Source: Nitrosopumilus sp.
Lineage (GTDB): Archaea > Thermoproteota > Nitrososphaeria > Nitrososphaerales > Nitrosopumilaceae
Assembly (NCBI GenBank): GCA_965223425.1
Contig: OZ245003.1
Span: 1,824,001-1,888,000, forward strand
DNA length: 64,000 nt
Direction: 5' to 3'
Shown here: positions 46,403 to 55,827 of the stretch, piece after piece
Layout: every line of letters starts with the position of its first letter
Position numbering within the stretch: the first letter of the stretch is position 1
Program-made: the position numbers and the translations under genes
Notes under the pieces: model-generated
Databases searched by the model: none
Told to the model about the DNA's origin: nothing
Seen by the model: only the letters and a program-made list of their open reading frames with translations

Positions 46403-47119
46403 TTGTTGTTTCCCAGAATCAGAATAAAAGAACTAAAACCACTAAATTTAGAAGAGGGCTATCTGATTGACGGGTTCCCTTCAGTGGGATTTAGCAGCGC
46501 AATTGCAACTGAATCAATGGTGCACACGTCACAGTTTGAAGTGGCCGGAGTTATCGACTCGGACAGTTTTCCCCCAATCAGCGTTATTAAAAACGGCAAG
46601 CCCAATTATCCAACCAGGATTTTTGCTAATGATGATTTGAAAGTAGGGGTGTTTTTGTCATATCTTACACTTGATCAGGCATTTCATCGAACCGTAGCTA
46701 AAACAATGCTAAAGTGGGCAAAGAAACACAAAATCGGATTAATTCTGAGCAGTGTGGCAGTCAAGACACCAGAAGGTATTGAAGAAATGGTATGCATTGG
46801 AAGTACAGATTCTGCAAGAGAGAAAATCAACAAAGCTGGTTTGAAAGTTTTAGAACATGGAACAGTTCCAGGAATTCCAGGACTGTTATTAAACGAAGGA
46901 AGCCTAACAGGTCAGGACGTGATCGTAATAATTTTCCATACGGATGGCAAGGGTCCTGATTTCAAATCAAGCGCACAACTTTGCCTTGCAATGTCCAAAT
47001 TAATTCCGGGAGTGTCATGTGATATTTCTTCGTTACAAAAAGAAGCTGAAAAAGCTGAAGTGGTGATAAAAGAGGCAGAAGAGGAATCAAAGCACCTTAA
47101 AGGTTCCATGTATAGATAG
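46403..47119 (+). CDS. PAC2-family proteasome assembly chaperone
   Basis: IDGFPSVG, GIPGLLL, C-terminal MYR. Confidence 0.85.
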   Translation: MLFPRIRIKELKPLNLEEGYLIDGFPSVGFSSAIATESMVHTSQFEVAGVIDSDSFPPISVIKNGKPNYPTRIFANDDLKVGVFLSYLTLDQAFHRTVAKTMLKWAKKHKIGLILSSVAVKTPEGIEEMVCIGSTDSAREKINKAGLKVLEHGTVPGIPGLLLNEGSLTGQDVIVIIFHTDGKGPDFKSSAQLCLAMSKLIPGVSCDISSLQKEAEKAEVVIKEAEEESKHLKGSMYR

Positions 47120-47125
47120 AATTTT

Positions 47126-47314
47126 TCTGTTGTACGAAAAGTAAGTCCGCCTAGGATCAGGAGAACAATAGATGATTATTTCAGGCTGTACCGATCCAGA
47201 AAAGATATGGCAAAAAGACTGACAGAAAAATCCCGACAGCACATAATCAGACAGCGCAAAAAGGGAATCGTCTCCGCCCAGATAGCCAAGGATCTTGGCA
47301 TCACGGCAAGACAT
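47126..47314 (+). mobile_element. IS481-family left end and N-terminal fragment
   Basis: TCTGTTGTACGAAAAGT; MAKRLTEKSRQHIIRQ; homologous to the 54434 end. Confidence 0.8.
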
Positions 47315-47571
47315 CAGTAGTTCCCAGATGTAGATTTGTGCCCAGATGTATGCTTATGCCCAGATGCCGGTGCGTTACCGCATATTGCAATGCAAAGATC
47401 CAGATTAGGTTACGGTGTGCAAGATGTCATGAGCAATCAAACACAAGACGATCTGATCGCACACCAGTACGACATAGCATCAAACCGGTTTAAAATCTTG
47501 CGCTCGTCGTTTCAAAAGCTTGGCATGCCAATGTCTGAGAGGCACAACGCCGTATACGGATGCAACGACAT
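47315..47571 (+). mobile_element. ISH3 left-end fragment
   Basis: CAGTAGTTCCCAGATGTAG TIR; matches the 55827 end. Confidence 0.85.
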
Positions 47572-47990
47572 CAGTAGTTCCCAGATGTAGATTTACCGCA
47601 ACCGCAACTGGCACCGGTTATATTTGCCTCGATCAATGACAAACGACTTGTTTCTGCCTGTAATGTACACGATAAACAACGCCATGGTAAGTTTTTTGTA
47701 ACTGATCGAGTTTATGAAGTTGCATGCGTAAAACACATCAAAATCACAGATTTTACATCCAATTTAGGCACGGCACTTCAGAAACACGAGCTGTTACAGT
47801 TTTTTTCCCGCAGAAGACACTCTTCCGTGCCTCTTTTCTGCATCAAGGCAGAACCTGGCAATCCTCCACAGGTTGTACAGCAGCAGCAGCGGCAGATAAA
47901 ACATCAGCAGCCTCACAGCCAGGGAGTTGCTGCATGTCCTGCCCATGATTTCCTTTATGACGCGAAACCCCGTCTCGATGCCCCATCTTG
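47572..47990 (-). mobile_element. ISH3 right-end fragment containing MITE copy 2
   Basis: Matches 54462-54770; RWGIETGFRVIKE. Confidence 0.85.
47698..47797. mobile_element. 100-bp MITE, copy 2 (inverted relative to copy 1)
   Basis: 8-bp TSD AGTTTTTT; empty site visible in the ISH3 copy at 54580. Confidence 0.88.
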
Positions 47991-48031
47991 AACACATGAT
48001 AACCACCTCGTCGTAGTTGTAGTGATGAATC

Positions 48032-48130
48032 GACCCCTGTGTACGTATGGGCCATGCGCCCTTGAGTTTGAATGGGGCAGTCCGAGCTGCTGTGTGATTG
48101 GGCCTTGCGCCCTGATAGGTGTATGCAGCT
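48032..48130 (+). ncRNA. Candidate IS110 bridge RNA (two internal-loop stem-loops)
   Basis: Two hairpins GGGC-N5-GCCC, each inside a bilateral internal loop closed by CCCC/GGGG or AGCTGC/GCAGCT; lies 5' of the IS110 ORF. Confidence 0.62.
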
Positions 48131-48672
48131 TCCGATCCGTCAAAGATCCGAAAGGAGGTGATAGAAAGGATGAGCAAAGGAACAATCAGCATAGGAATAG
48201 ACATTGGAAAGAGAAAATGTGACGTATGCGTCATGGACGGGAAGGGAAAGGTTTTGCATACTGGCCAGTATCAAAACACCGTCTCAGATGCAGACAGATT
48301 CGCAGAACAGACGGCACTCAGGTATTCTGCCAGAAGATGTCAGGCAGCATGCGAGACGACGGGCAACATGTGGAACATCACATACGGCGCCTTTGAGAGA
48401 CATGGAATCGACATAAAGCTTGCCAACACCTACAAGATGGCAATAATTGCAAAGACGGGAAAGAAGACAGACAAGATTGACGCACAAAAGATAGCAAGCG
48501 TATTGAGGATGGATTCAATACCAGAGTGTTATGTGCCGTCAGCTGACACAAGAGGAGTCCGGGCCATGGTCAGACAGAGGATCAGGACCGTACAGGACAG
48601 GACACGCGTGATAAACCGCGTCCACAGCCTGCTTGACAGATACGATGTGAAAATCGATGCCTCTGAGATGTA

Positions 48673-49781
48673 TAGTCTAGAGCAAAAGTTCTTGAGATCA
48701 AATATGTTAGACAGAAATACATTTTGATCACGCCGCACCACGCATTACAATGCCCACAGTAAAATCCGAAGACCTGAAGAAAGCGTACAAGAGGGAGAAG
48801 AACCCTCGTGTCAAGATCAGAATGGCGGCCGTAAACATGGTGTGCATGAACAATGAAAGCATTCAACATGTGGCAGACTCGCTCATGCAGTGCCCCAACT
48901 GGGTGTCCTTCTGGGTGGAACGCTTCAAGGAGGAGGAGGGCGGCATAGACGCCCTCCGGGATCTTCCAAAGACAGGCAGGCCGCCAAAGGTTCGGTTGGA
49001 CAAGATTGCAAGGGTTGTATCAGATGCAAACAGCAGCGGCATTATTACGCCAAAAAGACTCAAAAGCGACATACAAAAAAGATTCAAAGTAAAATACCAC
49101 ATAACCAGCATCAGAAAGATAATGCACAAGCTTGGAATGTCTGCCAAGACGGCTCAGCGCATCCACGTCGGCAGGGCAGAAATTGACAAAATCAAAAGGT
49201 GGCAACACAATGCAAAAAGGCGGATTTCACGCCTGGAATTGAAGGGTTTTACAACTGTCGTTTTTGACGAATCGATATTCATCGACGATCCTGCAAGTGG
49301 CGCAAAGTACTGGTCACCAAAAGGGGAGCCAATCACAACGACATACAAGGGACGGTACGGCAGGAGGGTGGTGGCATACGGCTCCATTGCGACAGACGGC
49401 AGGCAGTTCTTTAGGACATATGACAGGTTTGACAAGGAGACGGTTCTGCAATACATCAAGGAGATGACAAGTCATTTTGGCAAGGTGACAATCATCATGG
49501 ACAACGCGCCGCAGCACAAGGCAAGGATTGTAAAAGAGTTTCTTGCAGGCAACCCCGATGTCAGGACAATATGGCTTCCGACTGCAACGCCTGAGCTCAG
49601 TGTAGTTGAGGAGTACTGGCATCAGGCAAAACGGGACGTGTCGGTATCTGAATATTACGCTACGGTTGTGCACATGCGCCATGCAATGTCAGAATATTTC
49701 AGGACAGCCCGTCCCAAGCTTGATGCGATGAAGTTTATCTGTAGAAGGTCGCTCACTCTCAAAAACTTTTGATTGACACTA
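48673..49781 (+). mobile_element. Complete IS630-family element
   Basis: Imperfect 24-bp TIR TAGT...CAAAAGTT.TTGAG; TA TSD. Confidence 0.92.
48750..49772 (+). CDS. IS630 transposase, single frame
   Basis: FDES, MDNAPQH, TPELSVVE. Confidence 0.9.
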   Translation: MPTVKSEDLKKAYKREKNPRVKIRMAAVNMVCMNNESIQHVADSLMQCPNWVSFWVERFKEEEGGIDALRDLPKTGRPPKVRLDKIARVVSDANSSGIITPKRLKSDIQKRFKVKYHITSIRKIMHKLGMSAKTAQRIHVGRAEIDKIKRWQHNAKRRISRLELKGFTTVVFDESIFIDDPASGAKYWSPKGEPITTTYKGRYGRRVVAYGSIATDGRQFFRTYDRFDKETVLQYIKEMTSHFGKVTIIMDNAPQHKARIVKEFLAGNPDVRTIWLPTATPELSVVEEYWHQAKRDVSVSEYYATVVHMRHAMSEYFRTARPKLDAMKFICRRSLTLKNF

Positions 49782-50298
49782 TATGCCATAAAGGCCGTAG
49801 AACAGATGGAGTCTGCAAGCCTGGGATCCGTACATGACGAAATAGTACCGAGTCAGTGTGCCCGGCAGATAAGGAGCCTTACCGAGGAGATAAGACACAT
49901 GGATGAACACCTGGAAAAGGAGGCATCGGTAAACGAGGATGCAAAACTTCTTGCCAGCATGACTGGCATGGGAATCTACTCTGCACTGCTGCTTGCCGTC
50001 GAGATAGCCGACATTGTCAGATTCGAGACCCCAAAGAATCCCGTCTCATGGGCAGGCCTGTGTCCGGCGATACGCCAGTCAGGCGACAAAAACTACATGG
50101 GCAGAATCAAAAAGCTTGACACCAACAGTCTGGTCAACTGGGTCATGTGCGAGGCTGCAAACACGGCGGCAATTCATGATACCAGAATGAAGGCAGTATA
50201 CGAGTCTTCCAAGAGAAGACATGCAGGCAAGCATGCACTTGCCATAGTGACTGTCGCCAACAAGATGATAACCATAGCGTGGCACATACTCAAGACCA

Positions 50299-51437
50299 TA
50301 GTAAGTACATAAAAAACCTGAACCATTTTGACAATTATTTTTGGCCAAAAGATCCAAGACCGGCCATACCGCACACACTGCATGTACAAACAAAAAAAGA
50401 GACAGGCTGCAGGGGGGCAAAATTTCTGCCAAACACCGGCGTTGCAGACCTCAAAAGGGCATACAAAAAAGAGACCGATCCCAGAAGGCGCGACAGGCTG
50501 CTTGCGTACATGCAGCGCAAGGACGGCGTGCCGCTAGACAGGATCGGAAGGATGCTGGGAAGGCCCAAGTCCACCATATCTGCATGGCTCAACCGCGCAC
50601 AGGACGAGGGAATGCGCGCAAGGTTCGAGCGCAGCGGCAGGGGACGAAAGCACCTGATAGGCGGGCCGCAGGCAAGACAGCTTGCAGCGGACCTGGATGC
50701 GGGGCCGGAGTCATGCGGCTTTGAGAGCAGCCTGTGGGACTCCAACCTCGCAAGGCTGCACATCAAGCGAAAGTTCGGCGTGCAGTACAGCAAGGCAGGC
50801 GCGCTGCAGCTGGTCAGGGAGATGGGCTTTTCGTGGAGCAAGGCGCGTCCAAAAAACCCAAGATCAGCCTCAAAAAGAAAGCAAAAAGAGTTTCAGGAGC
50901 GGGCAAAAAAACTCGTTGCAGAAAAGTCGGCGCAGGGGTACACCGTACTGGCCGGCGATGCATCCTCGATTCAAAAGGCATCAAACAGGCCCGGCTACGG
51001 GTGGAGAAGGCGCGGCAAGCGCGCCACATCCCCCTCTGTTTTGTCACGCAAGAGAAGATACATTTGGAGTCCTGTCAGCAAGCGCGTTTTACTTTATGTT
51101 TTATGAAAAGCCAGACAGCGACAGCTTTTGCAGCTTTTTGGAACGGGTTCACAAAAGATTCGGCAGGGTGCTGCTGTTTGTAGACAATGCGTCATATCAC
51201 AAATCCAAAAAGGTAAGGGAGTTTCTGGAAAGATACAACGGCGAGATAGTTCTGGAGTACCTGCTGCCGTACACGCCGGAGCTTAATCCCATTGAGATGC
51301 AGTGGAGGGTGATAAAGCGGGTACTGTCTGCAAAGGTGTTTGGCACGCTAGATGAGATGGAGCAGTCAGTACGCAAGCTGTTTGCCAGAAAGGAGATCCT
51401 GCCTGTGAAAATGTTCAATTATTTAATGTGCTAACTA
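50299..51437 (+). mobile_element. IS630-family element with frameshifted transposase
   Basis: Imperfect TIR TAGTAAGTACATAAAA / TAGTTAGCACATTAAA; DNASYH, TPELNPIE; flanks belong to different genes. Confidence 0.88.
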
Positions 51438-52108
51438 TGCTATACCATCTCTAGAATCATCAGTGCTATTTCCGGCAATGATTGCGGCAAGTGCAGTCCC
51501 ATGATCATGAGTTTTAGTTGTGGGAGGGCAATTACTGTTACCACAGTTTACTTTACCTGCTTGCTTTCCTTCCAAATCAGGATGTGAGAAATCCACGCCT
51601 CTATCAATAACTGCTACGGTAATCCCGGTACCATGATAATTATACGGATGTGCAGGAATATTGCTTGCGCCACTGGCGGATTTGGCCTGATCCATATTGA
51701 GCCCTAATTCCTCAAATGGAGGTTCGTCCCCAATCTTGTAAATGAAAGTATAGTTTGCCAGCTCAGCTATTCTGTCAATGGGAACATCCGCAGAGACAAA
51801 ATCCAACGCAGTAGACACAAAAATATCTCTGGCATTGGCAGACAATAAAATTTCACGTAACTGGTATTCAGTACCGTTGATTGTATTGATCAGTATAGGA
51901 TGTGTTGGAATACTTTGCTGTCTTGCTGTTTGGTCTGATTTTGCAGCTGTACGGTCGTATTCTATCTGCATCTGCTGAATTTTTTCATAAAAACCAGCGT
52001 CAAATTTGTACATGTTCTCTTCGTGGCATAAGATTCCCATGCAGAAAATGACATCAGTGTAATTATCAAGACCGCAACAATTAGTTTTTCAAGGTCAGTG
52101 TTTTTCAT
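51438..52108 (-). pseudogene. Second secreted S8 protease, frameshifted after the signal peptide and truncated by IS630
   Basis: MKNTDLEKLIVAVLIITLMSFSAWESYA is out of frame with KFDAGFYEKIQ...VAVIDRGVD...HGTALA; no catalytic Ser. Confidence 0.82.
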
Positions 52109-54461: not shown

Positions 54462-55827
54462 CAGTAGTTCCCAGATGTAGATTTACCGCAACCGCAACTG
54501 GCATCGGTTCTACTTGCCTCGATCATTGACAAACAACTCGTTTCTGCTTGTAATGTACACGATAAACAACGCCATGGTGAGTTTTTTTCCCGCAGAAGAC
54601 ACTCTTCCATGCCTCTTTCCCGCATCAAGGCAGAACCTGGCAATCCTCCACAGGTTGTACAGCAGCAGCGGCAGGTAAAACATCAGCAGCCTCACAGACA
54701 GGGAGTTGCTGCATGTCCTGCCCATGATCTCCTTTATGACGCGAAACCCCGTCTCGATGCCCCATCTCTTGCGGTACTGCTCCGGTATGATGCCTGTCAT
54801 GGCTCTGGCGCTCCTGATGGGAATGTTTGTTGCAAACGCAATGTATTGCTCCTCCTCCTCTTCCCCCTCCCCCTTTTTCTTCTTCTTCCTGTCTCTTTTG
54901 ACAATTACAAGGTTGTAGGTCACAGTTACGCCGTCTTTGTTGGTCATTGACTGCTGCGATACCTGGCTTGCCTTTCCGTCCTTGTACATCTTGACTATCC
55001 TCTTGATCTTGGAGTTCATGATGACAGGCATAATGTAGCGGCACCCGCCCTTTCTTGCCTCTGTCATGCAGTCAACGTTGTAAAAGGCGCGGTCGTACAG
55101 GAACACAGTCTTTGAGTGTGCGCCCCCTCTGAGGATTTTCGTGCGTGTTTTGGCTATAAAATCGGCCAGTTTTTCCTTTGCCGGTAGTAGCTTCGATTCC
55201 AGGACAATCTGCGAGGAGTCCCTGCCGACTCCGTGCACTGCGACATACGAGAGAAACGTGGATGTTCCTGCCCTTGGACGCGACTTTCTTGTATGCTCCT
55301 GCAGCTGCTCCCCATGGTATGGTATGTCCGTAACGTCTATTGCAATGGCGTCGATGTCCTGCAGCATTCCTGCACGGCAGGCGTGCCGCACCGTGCGTGC
55401 CAGCGTCCTTGCACACCAGGCCTGCACGTCTGCCGGTTTGACGCCACGGACTGCAGACATGACCAGGTCTGCATCAGGCGTACGTGCACCCGTGTCTTGA
55501 AGCCTGTTGTGCCGTACGAGGGATTCTACAAACGTGTTTCTCTCAGACGCCTTGATTAGCACGTCCAGTATGTCATTGCATCCGTATACGGCGTTGTGCC
55601 TCTCAGACATTGGCATGCCAAGCTTTTGAAACGACGAGCGCAGGATTTTAAACCGGTTTGATGTTATATTGTACTGGCGTGCGATCAGTTCGTCATGTAA
55701 TTCGACTTTCATGACATATTGCACGCCGTAGCCTAATCTGGATCTTTGCATTGCAGCTATGCGGTAACGCACCGGCATCTGGGCATAAACCTACATCTAG
55801 GCACAAATCTACATCTGGGAACTACTG
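54462..55827 (-). mobile_element. Complete ISH3-family element
   Basis: Perfect 23-bp TIR CAGTAGTTCCCAGATGTAGATTT; TSD ACAT. Confidence 0.92.
54510..55778 (-). CDS. ISH3-family transposase (start uncertain)
   Basis: AIDVT, LYDRAFY, YRKRWGIETGFR. Confidence 0.88.
   Translation of the reverse strand: MPVRYRIAAMQRSRLGYGVQYVMKVELHDELIARQYNITSNRFKILRSSFQKLGMPMSERHNAVYGCNDILDVLIKASERNTFVESLVRHNRLQDTGARTPDADLVMSAVRGVKPADVQAWCARTLARTVRHACRAGMLQDIDAIAIDVTDIPYHGEQLQEHTRKSRPRAGTSTFLSYVAVHGVGRDSSQIVLESKLLPAKEKLADFIAKTRTKILRGGAHSKTVFLYDRAFYNVDCMTEARKGGCRYIMPVIMNSKIKRIVKMYKDGKASQVSQQSMTNKDGVTVTYNLVIVKRDRKKKKKGEGEEEEEQYIAFATNIPIRSARAMTGIIPEQYRKRWGIETGFRVIKEIMGRTCSNSLSVRLLMFYLPLLLYNLWRIARFCLDAGKRHGRVSSAGKKLTMALFIVYITSRNELFVNDRGK

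Follow-up and report, generated by a model that had tools for sequence, protein, structure and literature searches.

A bridge RNA of IS621 and of the IS110 group of insertion sequences (IS) was reportedly described by Hiraizumi and colleagues in 2024. In the text of Durrant et al. (2024; PMC11208160), this RNA lies in the left end of IS621, the core dinucleotide is part of all four pairings of guide with DNA, and the products of recombination are given as LT-RD and LD-RT. The present analysis concerns a twin-loop sequence in a 64,000-nucleotide stretch of archaeal DNA, called the window here (C1:1824001-1888000 of a two-contig assembly of 2.64 Mb). At positions 47989-50298 the window contains a defective copy of an IS110-family insertion sequence, 1405 bp in full length, from a Nitrosopumilaceae-type archaeon, and the twin loops are found in the left end of this copy, 5′ of the recombinase gene. 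They very probably represent the gene of a bridge-RNA-like guide RNA, with loops that would specify the insertion site and the element's own ends.

The IS1111 family has seekRNAs in which the complement of the top strand comes first, the IS110-type ISEc21 showing the reverse order; IS1111 elements have their non-coding region 3′ of the gene, and members carry subterminal inverted repeats (text of Siddiquee et al., 2024; PMC11187229). The strand conventions of PMC11208160 and PMC11187229 are used here as worded in their texts, not as drawn in their figures. Archaeal IS110 recombinases as such are known, 662 being listed in the text of a preprint (10.1101/2024.06.21.599552). By its text, the ISfinder survey of Durrant et al. 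(2024) covers archaeal genomes, with thousands of variants catalogued, and a 2026 preprint gives 86 covariance models over 32,190 RNAs in its text (10.64898/2026.10.21.760802). In the texts of the bridge-RNA surveys, structures that deviate from that of IS621 still covary with target and donor.

Layout of the twin-loop sequence

The twin loops run from 48034 to 48130 on the + strand, as do all features given below unless stated otherwise. Their letters are exactly those of a preliminary description of this locus, which had proposed an IS110-type bridge RNA. That description had missed an outer helix, P1, which encloses both loops and is formed by GATGAATCG (48024-48032) and its partner CGATCCGTC (48133-48141). 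Within P1 are two modules of like build, each with a hairpin of the form GGGC-NNTGC-GCCC.

In the first module (loop 1), helix P2 (CCCC, 48034-48037, with GGGG, 48074-48077) closes the putative target-binding loop. The 5′ strand of this loop, TGTGTACGTAT (48038-48048), and the 3′ strand, TTGAGTTTGAAT (48062-48073), lie on either side of hairpin P3 (GGGC-CATGC-GCCC, 48049-48061). In the second module (loop 2), the nearly invariant stem P4 (AGCTGC, 48085-48090, with GCAGCT, 48125-48130) closes the putative donor-binding loop, which has TGTGTGATT (48091-48099) as 5′ strand, hairpin P5 (GGGC-CTTGC-GCCC, 48100-48112) and TGATAGGTGTAT (48113-48124) as 3′ strand. The four unpaired strands end in TAT, AAT, ATT and TAT, that is, in or beside AT as had been noted earlier; these termini are not the core of the element. 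A ribosome-binding-like GGAGGTG (48154-48160), kept in homologues, precedes the ATG of the recombinase gene at 48170.

Conservation of the structure

Single-sequence folding of the left end is unremarkable and no Rfam family matches it, so the claim of a structure must rest on comparison. Homologous recombinases (36-69% identity) were taken from related genomes and from 78 public loci, which represent Nitrosopumilaceae, other Nitrososphaerota, Bathyarchaeia and one Promethearchaeati metagenome-assembled genome (MAG). The regions upstream of these genes display the same layout. Thirty homologous left ends were aligned and compared with a model of five helices: P1 (9 bp), P2 and P3 of loop 1, and P4 and P5 of loop 2. 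In the alignment 91.2% of the cells pair, compared with 78.0% in column shuffles (none of 500 as high) and 30-44% in controls with slid partners. Changes on both sides are found in 20 of the 27 pairs, among them all nine of P1 and all four of P2. Unguided prediction by RNAalifold recovers P1, P3, P4 and P5. The preliminary description had looked both to folding and to covariance across homologous left ends for confirmation; the first gave none and the second did.

A covariance model (R1) built from this alignment has exactly eight matches in the archaeon's own genome. Every one is a left end of this element, and the genome has no match outside such left ends. Among 92 sources there are 75 matches, all at archaeal loci related to the recombinase (36-69% identity) and including loci that were not in the seed. 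Most are directly 5′ of the recombinase gene, and a few mark other copies in a locus. No match is found at 13 bacterial loci (L146, L147, L150-L152, L154-L157, L160-L163) or at L063-L066, L070 and L071, where identity to this recombinase is 24-35%. The model also misses the haloarchaeal, Afipia and ISEc11 loci, and the Afipia element has no recognisable twin-loop layout by eye.

These data bear on the alternative that two similar hairpins stand together by chance, or that they arose by local tandem duplication and have no function. Such an origin would fit the likeness of the two modules and the unremarkable fold energy, but it is already refuted by the 75 matches over divergent archaeal loci and by the 20 covarying pairs, and its probability is negligible.

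Element ends and core dinucleotide

Complete copies of the element end in ...GGTGGTTAACATAGG-TG, and all copies start with TG-AACACATGATAACCACC. Two classes of empty site are found. The first, xxTAG(C/T)T-TG-TTGCATAACACGCC, reads as the terminus of another IS and is uninterrupted in 12 of the 15 matches of the GCATAACACGCC motif; the second, GGCGGCATCT-TG-CGCACAAAGGCC, is present in three empty copies. The empty sites xxTAGCT-TG-TTGCATAAC and GGCATCT-TG-CGCACAAAGG agree with the occupied form ...TG-AACAC...ATAGG-TG-.... Empty sites have a single TG, and complete copies have it at each of their two junctions. Because empty and occupied sites share only TG at both junctions, the core is TG (47989-47990 at the left junction), not AT as had been proposed. 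The core is counted here as the first base pair of the element. Insertion is site-specific, and the two classes of empty site show no duplication beyond the short shared core.

With the core placed in this way, the donor junction is CATAGG-TG-AACACA, that is, ...AACATAGG-TG-AACACATGA..., which replaces the earlier reading TGTGTG-AT-ACACC. A left subterminal inverted repeat, ATGATAACCACC (47996-48007), has its partner GGTGGTTAACAT in the right end of intact copies; the partner is absent from the window. The loss of the right end had been recognised earlier and is borne out, as other copies continue for 207 bp past 50298. In 41 of 43 rows compared (aligned copies and relatives), an inverted stretch of the left repeat, 5-18 nt in length (5 in L153), lies beside the located right end, and in the other two it is 0.

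Right ends of several Nitrosopumilaceae subfamilies share a further motif about 95 nt before the end, in which CTAGCGTTAGCTATAAA and CTAGGCACGGATC are separated by a spacer of about 12 nt (examples are L003, at about 2790-2850, L086, L121, L093 and L104). Its GGCACGGATC part resembles the 5′ strand of P1. The motif looks like an outward-facing archaeal TATA-type promoter, from which transcription would cross the junction and enter the RNA only where the element is circular or in tandem.

Correspondence of guide strands with DNA

The 3′ strand of loop 1 has the form TT-NNNNN-TG-AAT, in which the five variable bases and the TG are the left flank and core. In the window, TTGAGTTTGAAT is read as TT, the left-target guide GAGTT, the core TG and AAT. 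As a strand of this kind has the same letters as the top strand across left flank and core, it would pair with the bottom strand. Among 65 non-identical rows, the left-target 7-mer is found exactly in the 75 nt upstream of the same copy in 24, and with at least six of seven bases in 53. Nearly all of these matches are at the element boundary, 35-44 nt before the start of the model. For guides compared with upstream regions not their own (4030 comparisons), the values are 1.2% exact and 13.5% with at least six of seven. A diverged copy in the genome, 77% identical, has the guide GTTTC-TG and the flank CGTTTC-TG, and near-identical copies in the genome differ chiefly in loop 1.

The 5′ strand of loop 1 complements the top strand of core and right flank; its reverse complement consists of A, the core and the right flank. 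TGTGTACGTAT is accordingly parsed as T, the right-target guide GTGTACG, a core-pairing TA, and T. Right ends were located by means of the 7-mer of the loop-2 3′ strand. In 28 unique pairs the right-target guide matches a mean of 4.43 of the seven bases past the core, compared with 2.18 on permutation (none of 10000 as high). The target given by the guides in the window is GAGTT-TG-CGTACAC, and the target TGTACGT-AT-TCAAA of the preliminary description does not hold.

In loop 2 the correspondences are with the element itself. The 3′ strand, TGATAGGTGTAT, contains ATAGG and TG, which are the right element end and core of intact copies. Its 7-mer is found within 900 nt downstream of the RNA in 43 of 63 rows, only once in 39 of them, and adjoins the inverted left subterminal repeat in 41 of the 43. 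Relatives carry variants such as ATAGA-TG, ATGAG-TG and ATGGA-TG. The 5′ strand, TGTGTGATT, complements the first bases of the left end (AACACA). Over 25 unique pairs its reverse complement agrees with 4.28 of the first six left-end bases, compared with 2.69 on permutation (none of 10000 as high), and matching substitutions are found, for example AAGACA with TGTCT and ATAGTA with TACGAT. The copy in the window pairs at five of the first six bases past the core. This accounts for the earlier remark that the local junction TGAACAC matches the donor imperfectly.

The core itself co-varies. In place of TG, L135 and L143 carry AG at the left junction and in the two 3′ strands, and L135 also has the switch in its located right end and in its loop-1 5′ strand. 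In L120, AG is confined to the flank and the loop-1 3′ strand, and the loop-2 strand of this locus appears degenerate. Among six copies that are 98-99% identical, the target-guide bases vary at 5 of 23 positions, compared with 16 of 552 elsewhere (Fisher p 8.7e-4).

A structure of this kind might instead act in cis on the recombinase mRNA as a regulatory 5′ leader, controlling translation or stability, for instance, and have no guiding role. Its position directly 5′ of a ribosome-binding site and ATG is that of a leader, and the conserved helices alone would fit a leader equally well. However, a role as leader leaves unexplained the agreement of four unpaired strands with flanks and element ends, the joint change of TG to AG in loops, ends and flanks, and the fact that no bases vary more between nearly identical copies than those of the target-loop strands. 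This alternative is regarded as highly unlikely.

Another alternative places recognition at the level of DNA, with subterminal sites recognised by protein or hairpins of single-stranded DNA, and with the likeness to flanks arising from copying of the target or from recombination between element and target. Wobble counts favour neither strand, and at C1:367316-367401 the element is fused to a target-type IS end just past the loop-1 3′ strand, so recombination at this place does occur. Recognition of DNA alone does not account for complementarity to opposite DNA strands across each loop, in the IS621 geometry where the DNA segment paired by each guide starts at the core, nor for an RNA-like three-way arrangement with compensatory changes; further, the recombinase family is known to be RNA-guided. 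The DNA-level explanation is considered improbable.

The guide-RNA reading is carried by the conserved structure, the four correspondences between guide and DNA, the TG core, the co-variation of this core and the excess variability of the target-guide bases. It retains the kind of RNA proposed in the preliminary description, with loop 1 for the target and loop 2 for the donor, situated in the non-coding left end of an IS110-family element from an archaeon; covariation of the structure and the four matches speak for this part, and the details of core, target and donor given there are replaced.

Misfits

Several observations weigh against the guide-RNA reading. Relative to dinucleotide shuffles, the fold energy of single sequences has z values of -0.7 to +0.4, and minimum-free-energy folds of longer stretches do not contain the twin loops. 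In a scan of 47000-51500 with Rfam 15 (E up to 10) no relevant family was found, only two chance matches of microRNA (miRNA) models; whether Rfam 15 holds a bridge RNA model was not checked. P2 is not the choice of RNAalifold, which replaces it with a small local hairpin; this hairpin has no compensatory change, and P2 as modelled has them in every pair. The permutation counts overstate independence because the rows are relatives, several of them from one genome. Within the archaeon's own genome, the left flank is matched with at least six of seven bases in only four of the eight full copies. In the window the left-target match is 4 of 7 (GAGTT compared with CATCT; two of the five variable bases), and the right-target guide predicts CGTACAC, which fits CGGTAC of the empty host-IS site only with a slip of one nucleotide. 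Some relatives fit poorly: the right flank of L139 at 0 of 7 and that of L061 at 1 of 7, and the donor of L057 at 1 of 6. Finally, there are 38 G:U and 32 A:C cells, so that wobble does not settle the strand.

Guides were also compared with the junctions of intact copies, as had been suggested for a check. The donor 3′ strand agrees with the right end (ATAGG-TG). The right-target guide of the intact copy fits its flank (TTGCATA compared with TGCATAC) only when shifted by one base, with 1 of 7 in register.

The guide GATCT of a sister copy fits the left flank of the window copy better (4 of 5) than its own guide does. This suggests either a later exchange of guide segments between copies or an insertion at an imperfect site.

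The + strand was chosen because it alone lets each guide pair with DNA that begins at the core, in agreement with the solved system. A minus-strand RNA would pair with DNA 5′ of the core, which fits neither of the described geometries, and was rejected; wobble counts are of no help here.

The two weak Rfam matches are to plant miRNA models (E 0.67 and 3.5, far under gathering scores) and lie at 47628-47811 in an A/T-rich inverted-repeat stretch. They are taken as chance.

Proposed mechanism

With the guide-RNA reading, the left end would encode a + strand bridge RNA of about 120 nt, in which P1 encloses two modules of stem, internal loop and hairpin. Module 1 would be the target-binding loop and would select the target. 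Module 2 would be the donor-binding loop and would recognise the abutted right-left junction, its 5′ strand pairing with top-strand DNA where the left end starts. On the model of IS621, the RNA-bound DEDD/Ser recombinase might then bring the junction of the excised circle, ...CATAGG-TG-AACACA..., and a matching target together. Strand exchange is predicted at the TG core, which is contained in both loops; since this core is shared, TG would flank the inserted element on both sides. Production of the RNA, its binding by the recombinase and the chemistry are thus proposed from the sequence comparison and the IS621 precedent.

The recombinase and the copy in the window

The open reading frame (ORF) that begins at ATG 48170 is in two pieces. 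The first (48170-48673, about residues 1-168) has the DEDD/RuvC-like domain and matches PF01548 (DEDD_Tnp_IS110) with E 1.7e-29; the second (49782-50298, to about residue 340, where it is cut off) has the Transposase_20 domain and matches PF02371 with E 1.6e-17. Together these define the IS110-family architecture. D11, E62, D101, D104 and S267 are invariant in five homologues (36-48% identity), and the invariant columns align with the GID, E, KTDxxDA and SG motifs of the solved ISCro4 recombinase. These five residues are presumably catalytic, as in the literature on IS621. Matches by phmmer to IS621 (E 2e-7) and ISCro4 (E 7e-9) are remote only, and the likeness of the protein to IS621, ISCro4 and ISEc11 is equally remote.

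An IS630-family element (48674-49781, boundaries within 2-3 bases; ORF 48750-49772, DDE_3) separates the two pieces. Its removal restores an ORF for residues 1-340 of 364, and the earlier statement that most of the frame can be rebuilt in this way is correct. A second IS630-like element (50299-51434, end coordinate approximate), itself frameshifted, truncates the IS110 copy. Its helix-turn-helix (HTH) part (ORF 50279-51106) and its DDE_3 part (ORF 50682-51434) are in different frames. Position 50298, where this element starts, was ruled out as the true right end by the longer copies. The copy in the window lacks the final 24 codons and all of the right end (207 bp). With its gene split by the IS630 and its 3′ end and right end deleted, this copy cannot move. 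The RNA gene is intact, and the most it could do is act in trans with the one intact copy of the genome.

The left flank (47950-47988, no strand assigned) is the interior of an insertion sequence of about 37 copies that was hit by the IS110 copy, and the left target reads ...GCCCCATCT. Uninterrupted copies of this host IS read GCCCCATCT-TG-CGGTACTGC, or a variant with an extra TC. The interrupted member is at 47794-47988 on the minus strand and has a weak DDE_Tnp_1 match. A separate intact member is found at 54756-54792, about 6.8 kb downstream. When the right half of the interrupted member was sought in the window, the only match was 54773-54792, which is part of that separate intact copy. 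A deletion or rearrangement must therefore have accompanied the nested insertions. As far as the window goes, the finding is a mundane one, a dead and nested IS copy.

Other copies in the genome

The only intact copy in the genome is at C1:2063373-2064777. It has 1405 bp, an ORF of 364 amino acids (P0001), a left end of 181 nt and a right end of about 129 nt, with the RNA between the left end and the ATG. Five more copies, that of the window among them, are 98-99% identical, and each is interrupted or truncated. A subfamily at 76-83% identity is represented by two truncated copies, and the genome also has three short pieces of left ends and a fragment of one right end. At least three further paralogue groups of the IS110 family, with several copies and 26-31% identity to P0001, are also present (e.g. 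at C1:785397-786191, 1500638-1501615, 2046356-2047342 and 2373768-2374601).

The copies at C1:850534 and C1:2135837 are of one target class and have the same 1.13-kb insertion at the same position, and both of their target-guide strands differ (GTGTACG/GATCT compared with GTATGCA/GAGCT). This pattern points to an exchange of guide segments between copies. In the fragment at C1:367316-367401 (L012), the left end halts right after the loop-1 3′ strand (TTGAGTTTGAAT), and the next letters are GCATAACACGCC, which is the IS end of the target type. Recombination between guide-coding DNA, a mimic of left target and core, and a real target seems to have produced this fragment. At L137:2887-2960 there is a deletion variant with only one GGGC...GCCC hairpin between the loop-1 5′ strand and the loop-2 3′ strand, which looks like the outcome of recombination between the two nearly identical hairpins.

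Comparison with described systems

The element is like IS621 in several ways. The recombinase has a DEDD domain and a Transposase_20 domain, and the guide RNA is in a long left non-coding end, 5′ of the gene. Two internal loops are present, of which the first is assigned to the target and the second to the donor, that is, the right-left junction. Every loop strand pairs with a DNA segment that starts at a shared core of two nucleotides, the core is in all four pairings, and it borders the element once inserted. Repeated DNA is preferred as target; in this case it is the end of another IS. The outer helix around both loops is a difference from the IS621 shape. The core is CT in IS621 and TG here. 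The host here is archaeal, and the right end displays a TATA-like motif in place of a sigma-70 junction promoter. Inverted repeats of 2-3 bp are reported for the IS110 group, whereas those found here are subterminal and of 8-18 bp. The order of the guides is reversed in all four strands relative to the text on IS621 (PMC11208160): here each loop has its 5′ side paired to the top strand (right half) and its 3′ side to the bottom strand.

The likeness to IS1111 is of another kind. A guide order in which the complement of the top strand comes first is the order that the text of PMC11187229 gives for IS1111. The element also has clear subterminal inverted repeats (ATGATAACCACC and GGTGGTTAACAT; the IS1111 criterion is about 7-17 bp) and inserts site-specifically into the ends of other mobile elements. 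The guide RNA of IS1111 elements, however, is downstream of the gene, and here it is upstream, in the left end. ISEc11, the one IS1111-group element checked, has its long non-coding region downstream of the gene. The combination of IS1111 order and repeats with the IS110 position of the RNA means that, in the circular form, the junction would be upstream rather than downstream of the RNA.

A haloarchaeal IS110-family element (L164, 34% identity) displays the same layout by eye. Its core TG is at 979-980, and a 17-bp subterminal repeat is found at 986-1002 and 2382-2398. GGATTT-CA complements the right flank, GTTCTGT-TG equals the left flank, and ATAGG-TG is the right end.

Neither an archaeal clade of this kind nor a left-end RNA with guides in top-then-bottom order is described in the text of the bridge-RNA catalogues, their figures and supplements aside. 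There is a real chance that the archaeal RNA family is already contained, unremarked, in the clusters of these catalogues.

By sequence logic, RNA-guided recombination by IS110-family elements would operate in several archaeal phyla, and natural copies allow the core and all four guide segments to be read. In one genome, target guides differ between nearly identical copies, which would represent natural reprogramming of the guide, alongside insertions at imperfect sites. With a compact recombinase (364 amino acids) and readable guide rules, the element is an ordinary candidate for a recombination assay. The mixture of IS110 and IS1111 features bears on the link of archaeal IS110 recombinases to Nop5 and C/D-box guide RNAs proposed in the text of a preprint (10.1101/2024.06.21.599552).

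The same mixture bears on the divergence of the IS110 and IS1111 groups. One possible, though doubtful, extension is that the archaeal clade (Nitrososphaerota, Bathyarchaeia, the Asgard-type MAG and, by eye, Halobacteria) represents a third and undescribed layout of RNA-guided DEDD recombination. Such a layout would have the guide order and repeats of the IS1111 type with the RNA upstream of the gene, and the TATA-type promoter of the right end would drive the RNA only from the circular junction. If this is true, these elements would be a living intermediate of the move of the bridge RNA between element ends that was postulated by Durrant et al.

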